DNA of 39,755 nt from Minisyncoccota bacterium (GTDB taxonomy: Bacteria > Patescibacteriota > Minisyncoccia > Phycocordibacterales > JAACPR01): positions 1-39,755 of the forward strand of contig JAULZV010000012.1 in assembly GCA_032117135.1 (NCBI GenBank). Reading direction: 5' to 3'. The translations under genes were made by a program, and so were the position numbers. The notes beneath the pieces are model-generated. The model had not been told where the DNA came from. It worked only from the letters and a program-made list of their open reading frames with translations, and searched no databases. Positions 5,114-39,755 of the stretch are shown here, piece after piece. Positions within the stretch are counted from its first letter, which is position 1. Each line of letters starts with the position of its first letter.

Positions 5114-6328
5114 ATGGCACCAAAAAACAACCAAGTAGACAATGCCTTCGTAATCTCCCAGTATTATGGTTTTGAAGGTCTTGAACTCAAACAAATAGAA
5201 AAAGAAGATCACGATAAAGCACGTAAGATAAAGAATTACGCTAATTTTGAACACTCTCATCTTCCTAAAATCGAAGAAGCAGTTGCTCTTCTCAAACACT
5301 CAACAAGTGATGGGCAAAAGCGAAAAGAAGTACCTTTTATGTACTATTCAAAAGGTGACATCAAAAATCCTCACGAAAAAAAGTCTAAAAGAAAAACAGG
5401 TGAATCTGTCTCGCTTCACATTATTGGCACTCCAAAGAGCATCGCTGAAGCAATTTTGATCAAGACTGCCTATACTATTCTCAAAGAAGAAGGCTACAGA
5501 AATCTATCCGTTGAAGTAAATAATATAGGAGATAGAGAAACACTGACAACATACAACAAACATGCGACCAATTTTTTTAGAGGCAAACTTGCAGATTTGG
5601 ATACTGACTGTAAAGAATTACTCAAGTTCGGTGGTCACACATTAGTTACATGTAACCTCAAAGGAGTTCAACATATTATCAAAGAAGCGCCGGCGCCGAT
5701 CGAATTTTTGAATGAAGAGCATCGTAATCACCTCAAGGAAGTGGTCGAATACTTGGAGTCGCAAGACATTCCATTTGAAATAAATAAGTTTGTGCTCGGA
5801 GATCCTCATTATTCATCACACACTATTTTTACTATCTTGGATGAAAAGTCAGGCAAAATACTCGCTACAGGATCTCGATACAACGACCTTTCAAAGCGGA
5901 CCGTACTTCGCAAAGGTATTCCTGCTGTTTCGGTATCAATCAAAATTCCTAAACTCAAACAAGTACCAAGCACCAAACAACCCAAATTCGATGACTGTGA
6001 TATTTATTTTATTCAATTAGGATATGGAGCAAAGCTCAAAAGTCTTGAGGTTGTTGAGCGCTTGCGTAAGGCAAGTATCCCAGTTCATCAATCAATCGGA
6101 CGCGACAAAATGTCGACACAGACTCAATTTGTAAACAAGAAAAATGTAAAATATATTCTCTTAATGGGACAAAAAGAAGCTCGAGAAAATAGTATTTGTG
6201 TTCGAAATCTTGAAACTAATTCTCAAAAGACTATCCCACTCGATAATCTTGTTGAATATATCAAAAATATAAGAATTACAGACAAAGCCCTTGCTAAGAG
6301 CGATCTTAAAGTAAAGAAAAAAATATAA
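5114..6328 (+). CDS. histidyl-tRNA synthetase-like paralog with degenerate catalytic core and HGTP anticodon-binding domain
   Basis: YYGF near the N-terminus, EVNNIGD, GSRYNDL (cf. GGRYD.L), and C-terminal LRKASIPV...YILLMGQKE...VRNLETNSQKTIPL; class II motif 2 (FRYERPQ) absent. Confidence 0.75.
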   Translation: MAPKNNQVDNAFVISQYYGFEGLELKQIEKEDHDKARKIKNYANFEHSHLPKIEEAVALLKHSTSDGQKRKEVPFMYYSKGDIKNPHEKKSKRKTGESVSLHIIGTPKSIAEAILIKTAYTILKEEGYRNLSVEVNNIGDRETLTTYNKHATNFFRGKLADLDTDCKELLKFGGHTLVTCNLKGVQHIIKEAPAPIEFLNEEHRNHLKEVVEYLESQDIPFEINKFVLGDPHYSSHTIFTILDEKSGKILATGSRYNDLSKRTVLRKGIPAVSVSIKIPKLKQVPSTKQPKFDDCDIYFIQLGYGAKLKSLEVVERLRKASIPVHQSIGRDKMSTQTQFVNKKNVKYILLMGQKEARENSICVRNLETNSQKTIPLDNLVEYIKNIRITDKALAKSDLKVKKKI

Positions 6329-7287: not shown

Positions 7288-8499
7288 ATGTCATCTAATA
7301 TAATTGTAGGCCTTGATATCGGAACAAGTACGATACGCACTGTTGTGTGTCGCGTTTCAAACAACTCCCATCTCCCCGAAGTAATTGGGTACAGTGATAC
7401 ACCAGCCCTTGGTCTGAGACATGGATATATCACCAATCATCAAGAAGCGGTCAAGAGTGTAAGACGCTCGGTCAAAACAGCCGAAAAACTCGCAGGTCAG
7501 AATGTTCAAGTAAAAAAAATATTTCTTGGAGCCGGCGGAATTGGACTATCGAGTTTTATATCCACAGGTGCAGTTATGATTACGCGAGCGGATTCAGAAA
7601 TTACTCAATCTGACATGGAAGCAGCTGTTGCTCAGGCTCGCGAAAATCTCCCACCTCAATACATTCAAAACAGAAGGATTTTGCACGAATCCCCAATCGA
7701 CTTTTTTATTGATGGTCAAGCAGTGCATGGGCACCCAGTGGGTCTTAAAGGAGTGCGTCTTGAAGCGAAAATACTTTTTATGAATTTGCTTGAGCCACAT
7801 ATCCAAGGCTTGATTGAAGTAGTTGAAGACGCCGGATACGAAATTACAGACGTGGTTGCGGCTCCATTGGCAGCAAGTTTTGTTTCACTCACCAAAGCAG
7901 AGCGAATCGCTGGATGTGTTTTGGTTAATATTGGTTCGGAGACATTATCAATTGTTGTTTATTCGGATGACAAACCAATCTCACTTGAAGTATTCCAAAT
8001 TGGAGGTAATGATATTACCAACGATATTGCTCTTGGATTACAAGTATCGCTCGAAGACGCAGAAGTTATTAAGCGAGATCATGATCGAGGCGAAAATCAT
8101 GGATTTTCAAAAAAGAAACTTGATGACATTGTCACCTCAAGACTTACTGACATGTTCGAACTTGTAGATGTGCACCTTAAGCATATTGGCAAAAAAGGAC
8201 TGCTTCCTGCAGGTATCATTATCACAGGAGGAGGATCCCGCATCGCAACGGTTGAAGACGTGGCCAAAGCCTACCTCAAACTTCCTTCCAAAATTGCAAA
8301 AATAAATTGCGTAGCCGAAGATAAAAATTGTGATACGAACGTCAAAATAAAAGATGCGACATGGGCTGTCTCGTATGGACTTTGTGTCTATGGTTCTTTT
8401 GCAGATGACGGGCAATCAATTAATCTGCACAGAGCCCCTGAACTCTTTAAAGCACTCATCAAAACAATTCTTCGCAACTTCAAGCGCTTTCTGCCGTAA
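7288..8499 (+). CDS. ftsA: cell division protein FtsA
   Basis: IVGLDIGTS, VNIGSET, IGGNDITNDIA and GIIITGGGS actin-like motifs; directly upstream of ftsZ. Confidence 0.96.
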   Translation: MSSNIIVGLDIGTSTIRTVVCRVSNNSHLPEVIGYSDTPALGLRHGYITNHQEAVKSVRRSVKTAEKLAGQNVQVKKIFLGAGGIGLSSFISTGAVMITRADSEITQSDMEAAVAQARENLPPQYIQNRRILHESPIDFFIDGQAVHGHPVGLKGVRLEAKILFMNLLEPHIQGLIEVVEDAGYEITDVVAAPLAASFVSLTKAERIAGCVLVNIGSETLSIVVYSDDKPISLEVFQIGGNDITNDIALGLQVSLEDAEVIKRDHDRGENHGFSKKKLDDIVTSRLTDMFELVDVHLKHIGKKGLLPAGIIITGGGSRIATVEDVAKAYLKLPSKIAKINCVAEDKNCDTNVKIKDATWAVSYGLCVYGSFADDGQSINLHRAPELFKALIKTILRNFKRFLP

Positions 8500-31966: not shown

Positions 31967-33151
31967 TTATTCAACCCTTAAGAAATGCATCTTGCCTTTT
32001 TGGATGATGTCGCCCGTAGAAATGAGTTTGGATAAGTCTTTTGAAACTTCACCATTGATTTTGACACCGCCTTGCTCGATAGTACGTCGTCCTTCACTTT
32101 TGGATGCTACAAGATTACTCTCTACAAGAATGGCAAGCAGTGAGTACTCTGATGGTGTGATACTTGGCATCTCATCAGGGATTTCTTTTTTGGAAAAAGT
32201 AGAGATCCAATATTCTTGTGCATGCAGCGCCTCAGTAGCGTCGTGATACATTCGAGTAATCTCGAATGCGATTTTCATTTTGATTTCTTTAGGATTTACT
32301 CCTTGTGCTAATTGAGCTTCGTAATGAGCTACATCAGATAATGGAACACGTGTTGCTACGATGAAGTATGTAACGATAAATTCATCCTTAAGCGACATCA
32401 GCTTACCGAACATATCTTTCGGTTCATCAAAAATATTAACAGTATTTCCAAAACTTGAACTCATTTTGCGACCATCCAATCCTTCGATAAGAGGGTTTGT
32501 CATAATGTTTTGAGGAACTTGACCATATGTTCTTTGTAGATCGCGTCCTGCCAACAGATTGAATCGCTGATCAGTACCACCCACTTCAACATCTGATTTG
32601 ACCTTAACCGAGTCATATCCTTGCATCAATGGATACAGTAATTCGCGAAGTGAAATTCTTTTGCCAGCCGAAAGTCGTTTGGCAATATTTTCGCGCGAAA
32701 TAAAATCATGTAACGAAAAAGAATCTGCTTGAAATCCAATATCAGCATATGAAAGTTTTTTGAGCCATGAACTGTTGTAGTGAATCTCGGTTTTTTTGAT
32801 ATCAATTATTTTGGAAGCTTGCTGAATATATGTCTTGAGATTTTTTTTAATTTCGGCAGGAGTAAGCATAGGTCGCTCGCTTTCTTTGTCTGACGTATCA
32901 CCGATTGTTCCTGTAAAGTCGCCAATAATAAAAACGATCTTGTGTCCAAGTTTTTGAAAATCTCTTAATTTGAGAAGTGGGATTGAACGACCTAAGTGTA
33001 TATTAGGACTTGTTGGGTCGATACCAAGTTTGATACGAAGTTGCTTTCCACTTTGAAGTTTGGTTGCGAGATCATCTTGATCAATAACCTCAATAACTCC
33101 TCTCGAAAGGAGTTCTGCGATTTGTTCTGGATTAGTGTGTATAGTAGTCAT
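31967..33151 (-). CDS. tyrS: tyrosyl-tRNA synthetase
   Basis: LGIDPTSPNIHLGR, IGDFTG.IGD, YPLMQGYDS, GGTDQRFN, KMSSS and a C-terminal S4 domain; exact start uncertain. Confidence 0.97.
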   Translation of the reverse strand: MTTIHTNPEQIAELLSRGVIEVIDQDDLATKLQSGKQLRIKLGIDPTSPNIHLGRSIPLLKLRDFQKLGHKIVFIIGDFTGTIGDTSDKESERPMLTPAEIKKNLKTYIQQASKIIDIKKTEIHYNSSWLKKLSYADIGFQADSFSLHDFISRENIAKRLSAGKRISLRELLYPLMQGYDSVKVKSDVEVGGTDQRFNLLAGRDLQRTYGQVPQNIMTNPLIEGLDGRKMSSSFGNTVNIFDEPKDMFGKLMSLKDEFIVTYFIVATRVPLSDVAHYEAQLAQGVNPKEIKMKIAFEITRMYHDATEALHAQEYWISTFSKKEIPDEMPSITPSEYSLLAILVESNLVASKSEGRRTIEQGGVKINGEVSKDLSKLISTGDIIQKGKMHFLRVE

Positions 33152-33191
33152 AGGTACGCTCATAGTAACAGAATTAGAGCATGTGGACAAT

Positions 33192-33467
33192 TTAGTTTTC
33201 AGGATCAGTATCCTTTGGTCTTCCCCACTGCCATCGGGGCGTTTCGCCTTTTTTGTAACAAATCTTGAGAAAGATAATTGTCAAAAGAATAGCTGGCAAC
33301 AGAAATATAAGGACGAATTCACGAGGTGTTGCACTTGCATCAATCATCGCTGCAAAAAATATCATCAGTATCACATACGCACATGTAATAAGAAGTCCTT
33401 GCCATGTTGCAGGATACCATCCCCATCCGTACCATTTTCGCTTAAACCACAGTTTTTTGTCTTCCAT
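33192..33467 (-). CDS. conserved hypothetical two-TM protein
   Basis: WFKRKWYGWGWYPATWQG...CYKKGETPRWQWG pattern flanking two hydrophobic helices. Confidence 0.75.
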   Translation of the reverse strand: MEDKKLWFKRKWYGWGWYPATWQGLLITCAYVILMIFFAAMIDASATPREFVLIFLLPAILLTIIFLKICYKKGETPRWQWGRPKDTDPEN

Positions 33468-33546
33468 ACACAAATTATATATAAGAAAAACCAACTCGCA
33501 ACCAGGTTCTTTACTTTGAACTCATTAGCCGTTACCATTTGATGAT

Positions 33547-34254
33547 ATGAATATAATTTTTCTTGATACAGAAGCAACAGGATTACAAGATGCGCGGATG
33601 ATCCAACTTGCATACAAAATGCGCGGATCAGATGAACTATTTACCCAATACTACAAACCACCTGTTCCTATCGAATTTGAAGCTATGGGCATCCATCACA
33701 TCACTCAAAAAATGGTCGATGACAAAATACCGTTTGATCAGTCCCCTGACAAACCTGCACTACAAGAGCTTCTTAACACCTCGATTCTTGTTGCTCATAA
33801 TGCAGCATTTGATATTGAAGTTCTCAAAACAGAAGGTATTGCAACTAAGGATTACATTTGCACGTACAAGGTTGCATATGCTCTCTATGATCTTCCTAAT
33901 CACAAAATGCAATCACTCAGATATCGTTGGAGTATCGAGATCGATCAAGCAGTCGCACACGATGCAGCTGGTGATGTGATGGTTCTTGAAGAGGTGTTCG
34001 AATATATGCTCAAGGACTATTGTGCGACCAATGGAGTATCACCAGAAGAAGCGATACAAAAATTTATTGAAATATCAACACAACCAACCCTTCTTAAAAC
34101 TCTCAGTTTTGGAAAATTACGAGGAGAAACATTCGAAGATATTCGCATCAAGGATTTTGGATATTTACAATGGCTCGGAACACTCACCGACAAGGACGAC
34201 GATTTTGTCTATACTATTCAACACTATCTCAAAAAAGGTCCTTCTGGTAATTAA
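33547..34254 (+). CDS. DEDDh 3'-5' exonuclease (exodeoxyribonuclease X-like)
   Basis: LDTEATG, VAHNAAFD, ICT, AHDAAGDV and C-terminal FGKLRG...D.GYLQW. Confidence 0.9.
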   Translation: MNIIFLDTEATGLQDARMIQLAYKMRGSDELFTQYYKPPVPIEFEAMGIHHITQKMVDDKIPFDQSPDKPALQELLNTSILVAHNAAFDIEVLKTEGIATKDYICTYKVAYALYDLPNHKMQSLRYRWSIEIDQAVAHDAAGDVMVLEEVFEYMLKDYCATNGVSPEEAIQKFIEISTQPTLLKTLSFGKLRGETFEDIRIKDFGYLQWLGTLTDKDDDFVYTIQHYLKKGPSGN

Positions 34255-34378
34255 GAGTACAGGATCGGACTATACGAGACTTTCCTTGCATCTTCTGTAC
34301 TTAGTATTACAAATCGATATCTTCTTAGATTTTAGGATTTTAATTCTAATTGTAAAAAGAATATATACATGTATATAT

Positions 34379-34930
34379 ATGAAATTAAAAAATCTCTCTC
34401 ACAGAGAATCAGGATTCACACTTATGGAATTACTTATTGTAGTTGCCATTATAAGCATCCTCTCCTCTATCATACTCTCGACGGTTCGAGGAGCATACGA
34501 ATCTGCATATCTTGCCAAATCAAAAAAAGAATTTAATAGTGTAGCCGAATCTCTCGAATTATATAAATCAAATAATGATGATAATTTTCCTGCTGACACA
34601 AACCGAGACATTCCTCCAGGACTTCAACAATATCTAGCACCAGGAATTTGGCCTGACGCAGCCTGGCCTGGAAGTGTTTTTGATTGGGAGAACTGGAATG
34701 ATCCTGAGACTGGTCACAAAATATACCAAATTAGTGTTCGATTTTGTCCTGTTGGACAGCCTGCTCAGTGTAAATTTCCAAAAAAGAGCTGGGCTGATGA
34801 TTTTGATATTTCTAGTTCAGTGTTTTATTGCTTGTCAGGAGCATGTAGAGCTCACATTGATCGACCTGTCGATCATCCGGGATATTGCGTAAATTGCGCC
34901 GAACCTCAATATCCGTATGGGATTTATTGA
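34379..34930 (+). CDS. type IV pilin / pseudopilin-like protein
   Basis: Class III signal G|FTLMELLIVVAIISILSSIIL; start ATG 34379. Confidence 0.9.
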   Translation: MKLKNLSHRESGFTLMELLIVVAIISILSSIILSTVRGAYESAYLAKSKKEFNSVAESLELYKSNNDDNFPADTNRDIPPGLQQYLAPGIWPDAAWPGSVFDWENWNDPETGHKIYQISVRFCPVGQPAQCKFPKKSWADDFDISSSVFYCLSGACRAHIDRPVDHPGYCVNCAEPQYPYGIY

Positions 34931-34949
34931 TGTGATTTGATGTAGTAAC

Positions 34950-35591
34950 TTAAGAATCAACTTTTCCTCTGTATTTTTCTAGATGTTTTGTATCTATTCT
35001 ATCTTCAGCTTTTGCGTTAATTATTTTTTGCATTGATTGGTCATCAACAACATCCTTGAACATTCTCATAAAAGGATCAAAATCAAAATACTGATTTTTG
35101 TAATAAGGATGCACATTAAAATCACCTTGATCCCAAGTCGAAATATCGGAAATATTGTGTTGCATAATCGCCTCAACTTTATCTAATGAATGAGCGAACT
35201 TAGCTTCAAGAGTTTCTTTTTTCTCAAATTCTTCCCAAAGAGAGGTAATCTCATCGGCTTTCTCTTTTGACAATGAAGCGACGAGTTCGGCAAAAGCTTT
35301 TTTCTCACGTTCATACTTGTGTTCCTGTCTTGCAGATATTTCATGAGAAGGAATGTCTCCTGTTACCGCTTCGGCAAGATCGTGAATAATAAACATCTTC
35401 AAAACTTTTAGCAGATCAACTTTGGTTTGTATTTTGTCTTCCAGCAGTATTGCAAGCAAACAAAGCATCCATGAATGTTCAGCAACACTTTCTTGACGAG
35501 AAGAGTCGGTGAGCCACGAATGTCGCGTGGTAGTTTTTAACTTCTCTGCTTTCTTGTGAAAATCTATCAGGTCTTTGATCTGTTCTTTCAT
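34950..35591 (-). CDS. HD-domain hydrolase (5'-deoxynucleotidase-like, HD_3)
   Basis: LK...R.SW...RQESVAEHSW, IHDLAEAVTGDIP, LWEEFE..ET.EAKF..LDKVE. Confidence 0.9.
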   Translation of the reverse strand: MKEQIKDLIDFHKKAEKLKTTTRHSWLTDSSRQESVAEHSWMLCLLAILLEDKIQTKVDLLKVLKMFIIHDLAEAVTGDIPSHEISARQEHKYEREKKAFAELVASLSKEKADEITSLWEEFEKKETLEAKFAHSLDKVEAIMQHNISDISTWDQGDFNVHPYYKNQYFDFDPFMRMFKDVVDDQSMQKIINAKAEDRIDTKHLEKYRGKVDS

Positions 35592-35660
35592 ACTCTCAAT
35601 TTTACCTTGGATGGTGATTTATAGGTAGTGGAGGGTCACTCCGATACTAAATTTTTACTA

Positions 35661-35856
35661 CGGAGAATAAGGGATTCGGTCACAGATAATTTTCTACGAA
35701 AATTTCTGCGACCCCGACTCGGCCATCCCAGATTTGCTCCGCAAATGCAAGGACCCTAGACCTCCGTCTTTCTCATCCCTTATTCTCTCGCAACATGCGA
35801 AAACCGCAACACAATGTGTTGCGGTTTGCAGTTGCGGGCCGTCTCGAGTTAGAACC
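35661..35856. other. multi-hairpin structured element with tRNA-3'-end-like sequence at the island boundary
   Basis: 13-bp outer IR (35663-35675/35775-35787), internal hairpins, and an adjacent 12-bp perfect IR (35801-35827). Confidence 0.6.
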
Positions 35857-35997
35857 GTAGCGGGTCAAGCCCAGTAAGGTTTATTTAAGACTTTTCTAGT
35901 ATATCAAATCGATGTATCTCGAGCAGAGCAAAAAGTGACAAAAGTGACAGTTCTTGCAGTGTTTTTGTGACAGTGGATTGTCACTTTTTAAACACAA

Positions 35998-36252
35998 TTA
36001 ATACAATTCCGAATGTGTACCGATATTTACAAAATTAACCACATCACCATCTTCTTTAAAAATAGCTCTGTAATCACCTGTCACATTAATACTACGACAG
36101 TCAGTGAATATCTTATCTACAGAATGATTGTTTAAGGTTTTGTGATTTTTATCTTCTATGAAAGTCTCTAATCTATCACAGAATTGATCTTGTATCTTTG
36201 GGGAAAGTTTTTTGAGTTTCTTTTTGAAATTTTTATGAAAAACAATCTCCAT
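35998..36252 (-). CDS. type II TA toxin, RelE/YafQ family
   Basis: HKNFKKKLKKL...LNNHSV...RSINVTGDYRAIF...IGTHSELY. Confidence 0.9.
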   Translation of the reverse strand: MEIVFHKNFKKKLKKLSPKIQDQFCDRLETFIEDKNHKTLNNHSVDKIFTDCRSINVTGDYRAIFKEDGDVVNFVNIGTHSELY

Positions 36253-36255
36253 GCG

Positions 36256-36531
36256 TTAAGATTTAAGATATGCTATAGCGTCTTTGGCAGAATTGAATTT
36301 AGGTGAGACATTCTTGCCTTCTTTGATGTCCTTAAGTGCTTTCTCAACACTCTTTCGAGTAACAGGGTTAAACTCTTCCTTGGAAATGAGCCCAACATTA
36401 AAGTCCCCATCAACAAAGGCTTTGGTTGCGAGTTTTAAAATAACTCCAAATGACAAACCTTGGCTTTGAGCCTTTTTCATGGCTTGTTCCTTGAGTTTCT
36501 TATCTAAATTGAATATTACTTGTGTGTTCAT
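36256..36531 (-). CDS. type II TA antitoxin, RelB/DinJ-like
   Basis: VIFNLDKKLKEQAMKKAQSQGLSFGVILK; upstream of the toxin; TTGACA promoter at 36566-36561. Confidence 0.85.
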   Translation of the reverse strand: MNTQVIFNLDKKLKEQAMKKAQSQGLSFGVILKLATKAFVDGDFNVGLISKEEFNPVTRKSVEKALKDIKEGKNVSPKFNSAKDAIAYLKS

Positions 36532-36645
36532 GTATATATATTATATTAATGAAATATATATGTCAAATTCCAATCCCTACCACACTATGTTTTTCTAACT
36601 CTGCATAGTCTTAGCAAATCCCCTGTTTCTGTCATTAATTAATAT

Positions 36646-37959
36646 ATGGAAACCCAATACATAAGCAACTTCGGAGTTAGAACTGAAGTGCCTCAAATAA
36701 AGGTGAAATACGTCCTCTACGCTCGAAAAAGTACCGAGACCGAAGAACGCCAAGTATTATCAATTGACTCACAAGTAAAGGAAATGCTCCAGATAGCAGA
36801 GAAGGAAAACATGGAGATTATAGATATTAGAAGAGAATCACATTCAGCAAAGGATTCAGGACAAAGACCAGTATTTAAAGAGATACTCTCTGACATAGAT
36901 ATGGGTAGATACAACGGAATACTCACATGGGCACCTGACAGGTTATCAAGAAATGCAGGAGATCTTGGTTCACTTGTTGATCTCATGGATCAAGCAAAAC
37001 TGCAAGAGATAAAAACATATGGGCAGACATTCAAGAACTCTCCCAATGAGAAGTTTCTCTTAATGATTCTCTGTTCTCAAGCAAAGTTAGAGAATGATAA
37101 CAAAAGTATAAATGTTAAAAGAGGTTTAAGGACAAGGGTTGAAATGGGATTATGGCCAGGACCTGCTCCAACTGGATATCTCAAAGAAAAACGAAGTGAC
37201 AGGAAGTGCGAGACATACATAGACCCAGAGAAAGGCCATGTGATCAAGAAGATGTTTGAAAAGGTTGCATATGAGAAATGGAGCGGAAAGAAAGTATATA
37301 ACTGGTTGAAGTTTGATCTCAACTTCAGAAGTGCATACGGAAAGAAACATTTGAGTCTCGGAAATATATTCAGAAGTCTAAGCAACCCATTCTATTATGG
37401 AGAGTTTGAATATCCTCGAAATAGCGGGAACTGGTACAAAGGAAAACATGAACCACTCATAACAAAGGAATTATATGACATGGTGCAGGCACAGGTGAAG
37501 AGCAATACACTTAGAATCGAGAACAAGGAATTTGCATTCACCAAACTCATGACTTGCGGGCTGTGTTCATCTGCAATATCAGCAGATGAGAAGTTTAAGA
37601 AATTAAAGAATGGAACATCAAACAGACATGTGTATTACAAGTGTGCCAAGTCAAAGGATCACAATTGCACAAATCCTCCTATTAATGAAACTGACTTGAT
37701 TAAGCAGTTTGAAAAATTGATTGATGACATGAAAGTGAATGAGTTAAAAGTACGAGACAAGATTAAGGATGAGATACTCAGATTCAAGAAGTTCAACACT
37801 TCTCTCCTTGGGAAAAGTACTACTATTCAGATTGAAGATATTGATATCAAGAATTATGTAAAGTTTATTTTGAAGGATGGAGAGATGCAGGAGAAGCGGG
37901 ATATATTGGAGAATATTTCGGAGAGGATTTTATTGAAAGATAAAAACTTATTTATCTGA
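36646..37959 (+). CDS. large serine recombinase (resolvase, recombinase and Zn-ribbon domains)
   Basis: YARKS catalytic motif, SIDSQ, ESHSAK..RPVF, DRLSRN, APTGY, NPFYYG, HEPLIT, CGLC...YYKC. Confidence 0.93.
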   Translation: METQYISNFGVRTEVPQIKVKYVLYARKSTETEERQVLSIDSQVKEMLQIAEKENMEIIDIRRESHSAKDSGQRPVFKEILSDIDMGRYNGILTWAPDRLSRNAGDLGSLVDLMDQAKLQEIKTYGQTFKNSPNEKFLLMILCSQAKLENDNKSINVKRGLRTRVEMGLWPGPAPTGYLKEKRSDRKCETYIDPEKGHVIKKMFEKVAYEKWSGKKVYNWLKFDLNFRSAYGKKHLSLGNIFRSLSNPFYYGEFEYPRNSGNWYKGKHEPLITKELYDMVQAQVKSNTLRIENKEFAFTKLMTCGLCSSAISADEKFKKLKNGTSNRHVYYKCAKSKDHNCTNPPINETDLIKQFEKLIDDMKVNELKVRDKIKDEILRFKKFNTSLLGKSTTIQIEDIDIKNYVKFILKDGEMQEKRDILENISERILLKDKNLFI

Positions 37960-38997
37960 TAATAGCTTTTCACAAATCTTCTTAGAACAACAATGCTTTA
38001 ATCTGCCGAGATAAGATTGAAGTATCTGATTATATTGATGAGGTGAAATCAGCTCTTTTTCTAATTTTATTCGAGCTATTTTCATTTTGGAGATTATCCG
38101 CCTTTTTGTTTTAGTTCTAATAACAGAGTGATACGGAAAATGAACAAATCCTAAAAAATCTATACCTTCATGCCATTTTACAAAAGATACTTTACTTGGA
38201 TGTAAATTCAACTTTAGTTCTGTTTTCAAAAAATAATCAATTTTATCAAGAATATTTTCTAGATATTGTCTATCGTCCGACAGAGCAACAAAATCATCAG
38301 CATATCTTATATAATGTTTTACACCCAAGTTTCTCTTTATAAAATTATCGAGAGGATTCATATATACATTAGAAAATAATTGCGAAGTCAAATTTCCAAG
38401 TGGTATTCCCTTATCTGGTTGTGATTGAAAACTTTTAATAATCTGAATTAAAAGTTTTGTTACTTTTTCATCTTTTATCTTTTGCAATAAAAGACCAATT
38501 AAAATATCATGATCAACTGAATCAAAAAACTTTCTTATATCACACTTAAGTATCCAAACAGTCTTAGTATTTTGACAGGATATCTTCCAAGCAAATTTTC
38601 GAAATCTCTTTCCTGCTTCATATGTACCTTTGTTTTTCCTAGATGAGTATGAATCAAAAATAAATCCTTTATCAAAAATTGGTTCAATAATTCTAACAAG
38701 AGCATGGTGAAAAACTCTATCAATTACTTTAGCCTTATGGATACTTCTTAATTTTGGGTCATGAACATAAAATGCGGTATACTTATCGTGTTTATATTGG
38801 TCAGATTTTAAAAGATGATGAAGATTAAATAATTCCTCTTCGAGAGAAACAGCAAAAGAACTTACATCGTTCTTTTTTATTTTATCTCTTTTAAATTCTG
38901 ACCAAGCGGTAAATAAATTAGAAACGGAAATTATTTTAATAAATAAATCATGACCATTAAAGATAACACCCCCCCCCCCCCCGCGATTCTCTAGCAA
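37948..38997 (-). CDS. DGR reverse transcriptase
   Basis: DPKLRSIH, DRVFHHA, FIFDSYSSRKNKGT, LKCDIRKFFDSVDH, GIPLGNLTSQ (SQ, DGR-type), YIRYADDF, GIDFLG; about 350 aa with no endonuclease domain. True start may be ATG 39010 via the G-tract. Confidence 0.93.
   Translation of the reverse strand: MLENRGGGGGVIFNGHDLFIKIISVSNLFTAWSEFKRDKIKKNDVSSFAVSLEEELFNLHHLLKSDQYKHDKYTAFYVHDPKLRSIHKAKVIDRVFHHALVRIIEPIFDKGFIFDSYSSRKNKGTYEAGKRFRKFAWKISCQNTKTVWILKCDIRKFFDSVDHDILIGLLLQKIKDEKVTKLLIQIIKSFQSQPDKGIPLGNLTSQLFSNVYMNPLDNFIKRNLGVKHYIRYADDFVALSDDRQYLENILDKIDYFLKTELKLNLHPSKVSFVKWHEGIDFLGFVHFPYHSVIRTKTKRRIISKMKIARIKLEKELISPHQYNQILQSYLGRLKHCCSKKICEKLLSDK
38969..38982. repeat. C14/G14 homopolymer shared by the 5' ends of RT and avd
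   Basis: 14 consecutive C in a very AT-rich region. Confidence 0.9.
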
Positions 38998-39013
38998 TTC
39001 GATTGTTCATAAA

Positions 39014-39331
39014 GTGTATGAATTATATATAGTTTTTTATAGTTATAGCAAATTATTTCCAAAGAGAGATAGATTTGCCTTAGTTGCAAGAATAGAAAGT
39101 AATATTCTAGAACTTTTAGAATTACTTTTATTGGCTCAAACTAAAGAAAAGTCTAGTAGAATTCTTATACTTAACAAAGCAGATTTAAAGATATTGACAA
39201 TAAAATTATTTGTACGTATGTCATACGAAATTAAAGCAATTGATCAAAACAAATATATCAAGTTGGAAGAAAAAATTATTGAAATAGGAAAAATGACTGG
39301 TGGTTGGATTAAATACACAAAAACTGCTTGA
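39014..39331 (+). CDS. avd: Avd-like four-helix-bundle DGR accessory protein
   Basis: (SIVHKV)YELY...LFPKRDRFAL..RIE...LNKAD....IKLFVRMSYEIK.I...Y......IEIGKMTGGWIK; the EIG.M.GGW signature. The frame stays open upstream to 38954. Confidence 0.88.
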   Translation: MYELYIVFYSYSKLFPKRDRFALVARIESNILELLELLLLAQTKEKSSRILILNKADLKILTIKLFVRMSYEIKAIDQNKYIKLEEKIIEIGKMTGGWIKYTKTA

Positions 39332-39351
39332 AATTTATCAAGCAGTTTTTG
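39318..39351. terminator. 14-bp perfect inverted repeat between the avd stop and the TR 3' end
   Basis: CAAAAACTGCTTGA-aattta-TCAAGCAGTTTTTG, T-rich on both strands. Confidence 0.7.
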
Positions 39352-39354
39352 AAC

Positions 39355-39475
39355 ACTTCGAGAGAAACACACGCCCAGATTGGAATTCGCATTGTCTGGA
39401 TTCCTCCTGTTGACATTCGCCCCCTTGGAATCGAAATTACCCAGATTCACGAGGTTACCGTCAGAATCGCGCATT
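39355..39475 (-). ncRNA. DGR template repeat (TR), ends approximate
   Basis: Reads DSDGNLVNLGNFDSKGANVNRRNPDNANSNLGVCFSRS with nine AAY codons; 22 bp (39359-39380) are identical to 39734-39755. Confidence 0.9.
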
Positions 39476-39668
39476 GTTTCTTATATATTTCCATCCATAC
39501 CACCAAACACTTCGTTTATATAAAAGGTTGTGTTTGTTTTGTTACTAAAACGCATGCACTCCGTTGCCATAAAATACCCGCATTCAGAAATATATAGGCA
39601 GTGTAATTGGCGACCGTAATCCGTAAACTACGATTCATTAGCCAACTAATATCTTATCATACGAAAAA

Positions 39669-39693
39669 GTCCTCTCCCTAAACGGTCGAGGAC
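39669..39693 (-). promoter_or_regulatory. hairpin downstream of the VR (candidate target-recognition stem-loop or terminator)
   Basis: Minus strand GTCCTC-GA-CC-GTTTA-GG-GA-GAGGAC followed by TTTTT, 33 nt after the target stop codon. Confidence 0.5.
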
Positions 39694-39726
39694 AATTCAA
39701 GTTTTCAATATTCAAATTCCAATATT

Positions 39727-39755
39727 TCATCTGCGAGAGAAACACACGCCCAGAT
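39727..39755 (-). CDS. 3' end of DGR target gene / variable repeat (rest lies beyond the window)
   Basis: Minus strand ..AT CTG GGC GTG TGT TTC TCT CGC AGA TGA (LGVCFSRR*) matches the TR end; only 29 nt visible. Confidence 0.75.

Follow-up and report, generated by a model that had tools for sequence, protein, structure and literature searches.

Diversity-generating retroelements (DGRs) form a class already known as abundant in Candidate Phyla Radiation (CPR) bacteria, and the element described here, located in a 39,755-nt stretch of DNA from a Minisyncoccota bacterium (contig JAULZV010000012.1 of the GenBank assembly GCA_032117135.1), has its closest known counterparts in that group. These are the CPR set with B3 architecture (Wu et al. 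2018, PMC5758913), clade 2 of the reverse transcriptases (RTs) (Roux et al. 2021, PMC8144416), and the targets of AAA-ATPase-CLec type which PMC10907252 cites from Paul et al. 2017. According to PMC5758913, architecture B3 covers 90% of the DGRs in CPR bacteria, and a link to AAA/Midasin domains is noted for some of their targets. PMC10907252, citing Paul 2017, presents AAA-CLec as the commonest target architecture of CPR bacteria; the ATPase has been proposed there to transduce a signal sensed by the tip of the protein. Another arrangement, described in PMC7159879, is that of the MoxR-vWA systems (vWA, von Willebrand factor type A), in which the vWA component bears the DGR-diversified domain.

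The stretch analyzed as a whole (hereafter, the window) is an entire contig (C12) of a genome (G000) of 716,822 bases in 57 contigs, and its gene content (ftsA, ftsZ, several aminoacyl-tRNA synthetase genes, lepA, murJ) is chromosomal. The locus very probably represents a complete chromosomal DGR of the CPR/Patescibacteria type which has been active recently. It is a fully resolved example of its class: its parts have been placed, the target gene has been found across a contig break, and two natural alleles of the variable repeat (VR), one of them frameshifted, have been recovered.

Template repeat, variable repeat, and retroelement genes

The template repeat (TR; 39356..39478, minus strand) is 123 nt long and contains 33 adenines and 9 AAY codons; its 3′ end is formed by 20 adenine-free nucleotides followed by CGA, in the manner of an IMH* (IMH, initiation of mutagenic homing). 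The initial annotation of the window, made from the sequence alone, had reported an AAY-rich TR and an exact 22-bp repeat of its end (39359-39380 = 39734-39755), the next base being A in the TR and C in the VR on the minus strand; all of these are present. The similarity does not stop at 22 bp. The VR, represented in the window by its 3′ tip (39731..39755, minus strand), continues on another contig of the same genome, C24, as C24:103-227 (joined coordinates 39731-39855), at the 3′ end of the target open reading frame (ORF; C24:77-2050, minus strand, 657 aa). Over the 123 nt, TR and VR differ by 19 substitutions; 18 of these coincide with TR adenines, of which there are 33, and the remaining one with a T (P = 7e-10). 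The assembled VR also carries a 2-nt insertion relative to the TR. The DGR reading proposed at the outset has thus been borne out by the rightward extension, and the target, correctly said to be unidentifiable from the window alone, has been identified from the genome. An adenine-tolerant scan of all genome contigs, corresponding to the search for remote VRs advised earlier, revealed no VR besides the one on C24. Recoding of every TR adenine would permit ~10^15.5 protein variants. A relative (L032, G024:C3) displays a somewhat different picture: one TR seems to match two VR-like copies flanking the RT (~5182-5323 and ~7815-7959), suggesting two targets.

Two details of the initial annotation stood in part. 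The repeat indeed finishes in a stop codon in the frame of the TR and of the family (…LGVCFSRR and stop), but not in the assembled VR, where the 2-nt insertion makes the ORF end 24 nt later. For the A/C difference, mutagenesis and an IMH/IMH* difference had been offered as options. The 20 adenine-free nucleotides, identical in TR and VR, are followed by CGA in the former and by CGC in the latter, and this change recurs in 6 of 10 related loci; it is therefore a putative IMH/IMH*-type marker and not random mutagenesis.

The adjacency of the two contigs is shown by three lines of evidence. The first 127 bases of C24 (14,807 bases) are identical to the end of C12; in a public contig of 10,446 nt from run X1, which spans C24:1-2100, the TR copy lies exactly 155 nt past C24 position 1; and the gene order in the same-genus genome G025 (LemA-HtpX, 2.4 kb, TyrRS-p173-DsbB) is that of the joined C24 and C12. 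The contig C12 stops exactly where the variable positions of the VR start, presumably since the assembly graph would branch there.

Allelic variation was assessed in four public runs, all of them stored as assembled contigs and not as reads. The X1 contig departs from C24:1-2100 at 16 letters and by a deletion of 2 nt, and every one of these changes falls within C24:128-224. In seven of the nine equally good alignments, 15 of the 16 differences fall on TR adenine sites (13 and 14 in the others), and the sixteenth is located in an ambiguous indel zone. The X1 allele lacks the 2-nt insertion and has the length of the TR, so it is in frame. Two VR alleles on otherwise identical DNA represent a signature of recent mutagenic retrohoming, and the check for VR variation suggested in the initial annotation thus gave, at the level of contigs, a second allele differing at TR-adenine sites. 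Run X2, which belongs to a different study, contributes a 151-nt contig that matches C24:45-195 letter for letter, the insertion included. Runs X3 and X4 contain a strain diverged by ~7% and yielded no further VR allele: their sole contig over the VR region was rejected as a TR copy or a k-mer chimera, since it runs into the TR flank. A TR piece from X1 listed with 0 other letters was irreconcilable with the TR/VR differences and was not used.

Both proteins expected of a DGR are encoded next to the TR. The RT ORF (37948..38997, minus strand) comprises 349 aa when read from TTG 38997 as assembled, its conserved N-terminus starting near 38940. It matches RVT_1 (Pfam, 1.8e-24) and the reverse transcriptase family phrog_1423 (PHROG, 9.8e-104), and the GxxxSQ and YADD motifs noted before were located as GNLTSQ at residue 201 and YADD at residue 232. 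The closest solved RT by PDB sequence is 8ub7 (328 aa, E 3.8e-35), which we take to be the enzyme of the Bordetella phage (bRT); RTs of group II introns are behind (2.7e-20). The Avd-like gene (avd; 38950..39331, plus strand) lies on the strand opposite to the RT; no stop interrupts its frame from 38954 on, and the match to the profile begins near 38999. Its assignment has been substantiated by the matches to Pfam bAvd (1.4e-15, 58.1 bits vs. a cutoff of 40, beginning at position 3 of 107), to the PHROG family annotated as the Avd protein of DGRs (1.2e-19), and to NCBIfam DivGenRetAVD (1.2e-19). A phmmer search of Avd against PDB sequences gave 0 matches.

The repeats and genes are accompanied by non-coding elements. 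The spacer between VR and TR (39479..39730, minus strand, 252 nt) holds the stop of the target gene and a terminator-like hairpin (GTCCTC...GAGGAC followed by T5, ~39665-39695). On the other side, 7 nt past the TR, there is a 14-bp stem-loop with a U-run (39318..39351, minus strand; -21.9 kcal/mol), which resembles a terminator of the TR RNA and, on the plus strand, one of avd. A stem-loop with a U-run occurs within ~10-25 nt past the TR in 10/10 loci, those of the window and of nine relatives, with differing stem sequences, and in our view it would both end the TR RNA and terminate the convergent avd. In the relatives (L020, L032-L036, L039-L041), the spacer that lies upstream of the TR contains two short covarying hairpins: 87.2% of the alignment cells are paired vs. 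62.0% in shuffles, 0 of 500 shuffles equal this figure, and double changes are found in 13 of 15 pairs. These spacers also share motifs such as AAAAAATAA and GGTGGTG. The spacer of G000 is shorter than those of the relatives; the two hairpins fit it partially (6/9 and 3/6 pairs within 39479-39693, counted by hand in alignment A2) and are not claimed for it.

RTs of ~50% identity turned up both in the family (16 of 33 genomes, E <= 1e-10) and in the order (93 of the 301 genomes sampled, E <= 1e-60). An Avd match accompanies 9 of the 11 related RT loci in the family set (none at L037 and L041) and 26 of 29 loci in the order-level set, where one of the 26 (L014) is the same place as L033. At every Avd-positive locus, avd lies on the opposite strand, head to head with the RT, and the TR/VR pairs of nine related loci are adenine-biased.

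On the minus strand, the target gene with its 3′ VR (on C24) comes first, followed by the 252-nt spacer, the TR, and the terminator-like hairpin; next are avd, which is encoded on the other strand, and the RT, the two being head to head. The element would operate as follows. A complex of RT and Avd would copy the TR-containing RNA, misincorporating opposite the template adenines, and the resulting cDNA would replace the VR. In this way, up to ~20 codons (9 AAY among them) may be recoded among the final 41 of the target gene, which encodes a cytoplasmic AAA_5 ATPase bearing a tip of the formylglycine-generating enzyme (FGE)/C-type-lectin fold. The ATPase, encoded together with a small protein and a vWA protein, would most likely be a diversified ligand sensor coupled to ATPase activity. 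Within this scheme, we infer where the RNA begins and ends, how priming takes place, what the 3′ hairpin does, and that the ATPase is a sensor.

Target protein, its operon, and the surrounding island

The N-terminus of the target belongs to AAA_5 (8.3e-13; AAA_3 reaches only 0.096), and its translation displays the Walker A (GGTSIGKT) and Walker B (VIVLDE) motifs. The C-terminal 267 aa, which bear the VR-encoded part, had no match in Pfam, NCBIfam, or PHROGs. This module nevertheless defines a family of its own, with 1,029 representative clusters (E <= 0.001), in which it is always C-terminal in proteins of 219-1,090 aa and in which the consensus end, LGVxFSR, is that of the TR frame. Among the 36 listed homologues of at least 450 aa, 29 were scanned and 23 of these harbor AAA_5; one shows a weak AAA_16 match below the Pfam cutoff. 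One homologue weakly matches bpMoxR.

An AlphaFold (AF2) model of the module, built from 65 sequences, reached a predicted local distance difference test score (pLDDT) of 94.4 and contains a helical insert of ~85 residues (122-206). In an exhaustive VIA search of 48,161 chains, the top match of the model was the DGR protein TvpA (2y3c; Z 8.8, root-mean-square deviation 3.9, 174 aa, 11% identity), and the runners-up included chains of an FGE paralogue, EgtB, and the PvdO type, with Mtd (Z 6.2) and TaqVP (Z 5.2) further down. The runner-up chains presumably share the FGE/lectin fold. The model thus speaks, with moderate confidence, for an FGE/C-type-lectin fold of the variable module, and this is how the expectation of a C-type-lectin fold at the C-terminus voiced in the initial annotation has fared.

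The gene for the AAA-lectin target belongs to a conserved operon that also encodes a vWA protein. Upstream of this gene, there is a gene for a 136-aa protein of no family and, two genes up, one for a 703-aa CobT_C/VWA protein. The latter (L007; C24, 2482-4593, minus strand) shows a HEGGH (HExxH-like) motif within the N-terminal half of its translation, and its middle part is acidic and rich in lysine; no peptidase family matched the protein. The same three-gene operon (vWA protein, small protein, AAA-module protein) is present in the genome G017 (L042, G017:C2:25917-39719), which is 93% complete and gave no DGR RT match at E <= 1e-10; the AAA-module protein ends there in a different, non-VR-like C-terminus. 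Hence, the DGR diversifies one version of a host ATPase-vWA system, and the conservation of the vWA operon, also in a genome with no DGR found, supports the view of the target as a diversified sensor coupled to an ATPase.

The DGR and the target operon belong to a larger region between the core genes for TyrRS and HtpX, which were taken as its borders (33191-39755 and C24:1-5537). The region spans ~12 kb here vs. 2.4 kb in G025 and is thus a variable and possibly mobile island. Besides the DGR and the operon, it contains an HD-domain gene, a gene for a ParE-like toxin, with an ORF of 91 aa upstream of it, and a gene for a large serine recombinase (36646..37959, plus strand; Resolvase, Recombinase, Zn_ribbon_recom), which marks the island, converges with the RT gene, and overlaps it by 12 nt. 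No tRNA or tmRNA genes were detected in 33000-39755, hence no tRNA attachment site was found for the island; the HD-domain neighbour was not found in the five same-genus genomes searched, which makes it unusable as an island border.

A repeat tract in the RT/avd overlap

The 5′ parts of the RT gene and avd overlap head to head, and within this overlap, between the RT core and the Avd core, lies a homopolymer of 14 C (38969..38982; G14 on the RT strand). The tract affects the reading of both genes. The ATG of avd at 38950 reads, at C14, as MTIKDNTPPPPAIL followed by a stop, one base off the Avd frame, and the removal of one C would restore the frame. In the sequence as assembled, the only in-frame canonical start of avd is GTG 39014 (ORF 39014-39331, plus strand). 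This start would truncate Avd, since the profile match begins earlier, ~17 nt past the tract, and improves when avd is read from upstream: reading from 38954 lifts the NCBIfam score from 70.5 to 76.3 bits, the match then beginning at profile position 2. The RT start conserved in the relatives (ATG-GTC-ATG, as in L034) corresponds to 38925-38957 on the minus strand of the window, where it reads MVMIYLLK before a stop, one base off the RT frame. In G000, therefore, the RT can start only beyond the tract, the starts leading into it being TTG 38997 at C14 or ATG 39010 at C13.

Repeats at the same site are frequent in the related loci. Across 38 of them (L020, L032-L040, L044-L071), the overlap harbors a poly-C of 7-16 in 22 and a (CT)n repeat in 6, so that 28/38 loci carry one or the other and 10 carry none. 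After the exclusion of two loci with N gaps, three without an Avd match, and the 10 without a tract, 23 loci were scorable; in 5 of these, an upstream ATG shares the frame of Avd, and in 18 it does not. The occurrence of both poly-C and (CT)n at one site points to selection for slipperiness itself. An exact 41-nt pattern scan of metagenome contigs gave 0 matches, i.e., no further copy was found.

Judging from the sequence pattern, the tract may be a mutational switch on the hypermutation machine, the length of which would decide whether translation from the ATG yields Avd and, here, also whether it yields the RT. We put this forward as a tentative proposal. Under it, targeted hypermutation would be on in only a fraction of the cells. 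The contingency loci of Campylobacter, Neisseria, and Haemophilus, where poly-G/C and dinucleotide tracts in the 5′ part of the coding sequence set the reading frame, offer the natural comparison. They share with the present locus a long repeat that is prone to slippage, lies near the 5′ end of the coding sequence, and sets the frame by its length (C14 here, with the avd ATG off by one), and the retention of a repeat at the site irrespective of its sequence. At the same time, they differ from it in that the switched gene would belong here to a targeted hypermutation machine and that a single tract lies within two genes on opposite strands. A literature search returned no paper on the repeat tract of the RT/avd overlap in DGRs. 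If the tract is a real switch, cells would regulate targeted hypermutation by phase variation.

Competing readings and comparison with known systems

Several observations weigh against the reading of the locus as a complete, recently active DGR with a lectin-fold target or, in the case of the starts, against its full function. There is no in-frame ATG for avd at C14, with ~6 profile positions lost from GTG 39014, and the conserved RT ATG is out of frame as well. The NCBIfam score of Avd (70.5-76.3 bits) stays under the curated cutoff of 80, and a scan for sigma-70-like promoters upstream of the TR gave 11 sites vs. 10.5 expected from shuffles, so none is claimed. A Foldseek search of the module against PDB returned no match at E <= 0.001, and the Z score of TvpA barely exceeds the background of 7-8 stated for the tool, because of which the lectin-fold assignment is moderate and not strong. 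The 2-nt insertion, together with a T-to-C change, shifts the last ~20 codons of the C24 allele off the family consensus, the protein ending in ...RFPIWACVSLADEILEFEY instead of LGVxFSR. Finally, the runs provide data at the contig level only, so allele frequencies and ongoing turnover stay outside the evidence.

Part of these points could be explained by a relic, i.e., by a DGR whose activity belongs to the lineage's recent past and has ceased in G000, so that the two VR alleles are history and not ongoing mutagenesis. The displaced ATGs of both genes, the frameshifted VR allele, and the contig-level nature of the data would all be in line with this, yet, apart from its start, the RT ORF runs undamaged through 349 aa and retains the catalytic motifs, and TTG 38997 holds it in frame at C14. 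Moreover, the 16 VR differences against none in ~2,000 flanking bases speak for very recent diversification, and the tract, out of frame in most of the scorable relatives, looks like a property of the family and not like decay. A relic is therefore unlikely. The frameshift itself might have another origin: the 2-nt insertion and the T-to-C change of C24 may reflect an assembly chimera of several VR haplotypes and not a real allele. The coincidence of the end of C12 and the start of C24 with the onset of the variable positions, as expected of a branching assembly graph, would fit this explanation, as would the X1 contig without the insertion; the X2 contig, obtained in a different study and carrying the insertion, argues against it. 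As to precedent, PMC5758913 documents length differences in 25 of 372 DGRs, frameshifts in 11 of these, frameshifting indels by AAC/AAT codons, and non-adenine changes. We consider the chimera conceivable but rather improbable. The probability that the locus is no DGR at all but a group II intron, a retron, or a defence RT with a chance repeat nearby is negligible. Although the RT matches the NCBIfam model of group II intron RTs (E 5.3e-45), its 154 bits are under the cutoff of 300, its best solved relative is not a group II enzyme, and Rfam gave 0 matches at E <= 0.1 over 35000-39755, with no intron or retron RNA. The Avd gene adjoins the RT, an ORF carries at its 3′ end a 123-nt repeat with adenine-biased differences, and a second allele of this repeat exists; the TR/VR statistics have already refuted this option.

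The complete and recently active DGR, which is thus the preferred reading, can be placed among the described systems. It resembles the DGR of Bordetella phage BPP-1 (mtd-avd-TR-brt) in the combination of RT and Avd, the adenine-specific transfer from TR to VR, the adenine-free, IMH-like 3′ end, and the lectin-fold variable protein. It differs from BPP-1 in being cellular and not a phage element; in the inverted avd, which is situated between TR and RT and overlaps the RT head to head; in the terminator-like hairpin directly after the TR, where BPP-1 has the spacer region; and in the target, which is a cytoplasmic ATPase and not a tail fibre. From TvpA of Treponema denticola (2y3c), its top structural match, the variable module differs in its ~85-residue helical insert and in its fusion to an ATPase.

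With the MoxR-vWA ternary conflict systems described by Kaur et al. 2020 (PMC7159879) and Dore et al. 2024 (PMC10907252), the locus shares the AAA+ ATPase gene adjoining a vWA gene and a DGR-diversified domain of lectin fold (FGS/CLec) that probably acts as the sensor. It is the ATPase and not the vWA protein that bears the variable domain here; neither a VMAP component nor an effector domain was recognized at the locus, and the host is a CPR bacterium and not a multicellular one.

The closest resemblance is to the CPR set. The common features include the small, CPR-size genome and the chromosomal location; the presence of avd, TR, and RT with no further accessory gene; the inverted avd; the P-loop/AAA (Midasin-like) target with a C-terminal VR; and the occurrence of non-adenine changes and frameshifting indels. 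The locus shows no essential difference from this set. Overall, the head-to-head RT/avd arrangement and the AAA-lectin target are both catalogued for CPR bacteria, and the element is ordinary for its class.

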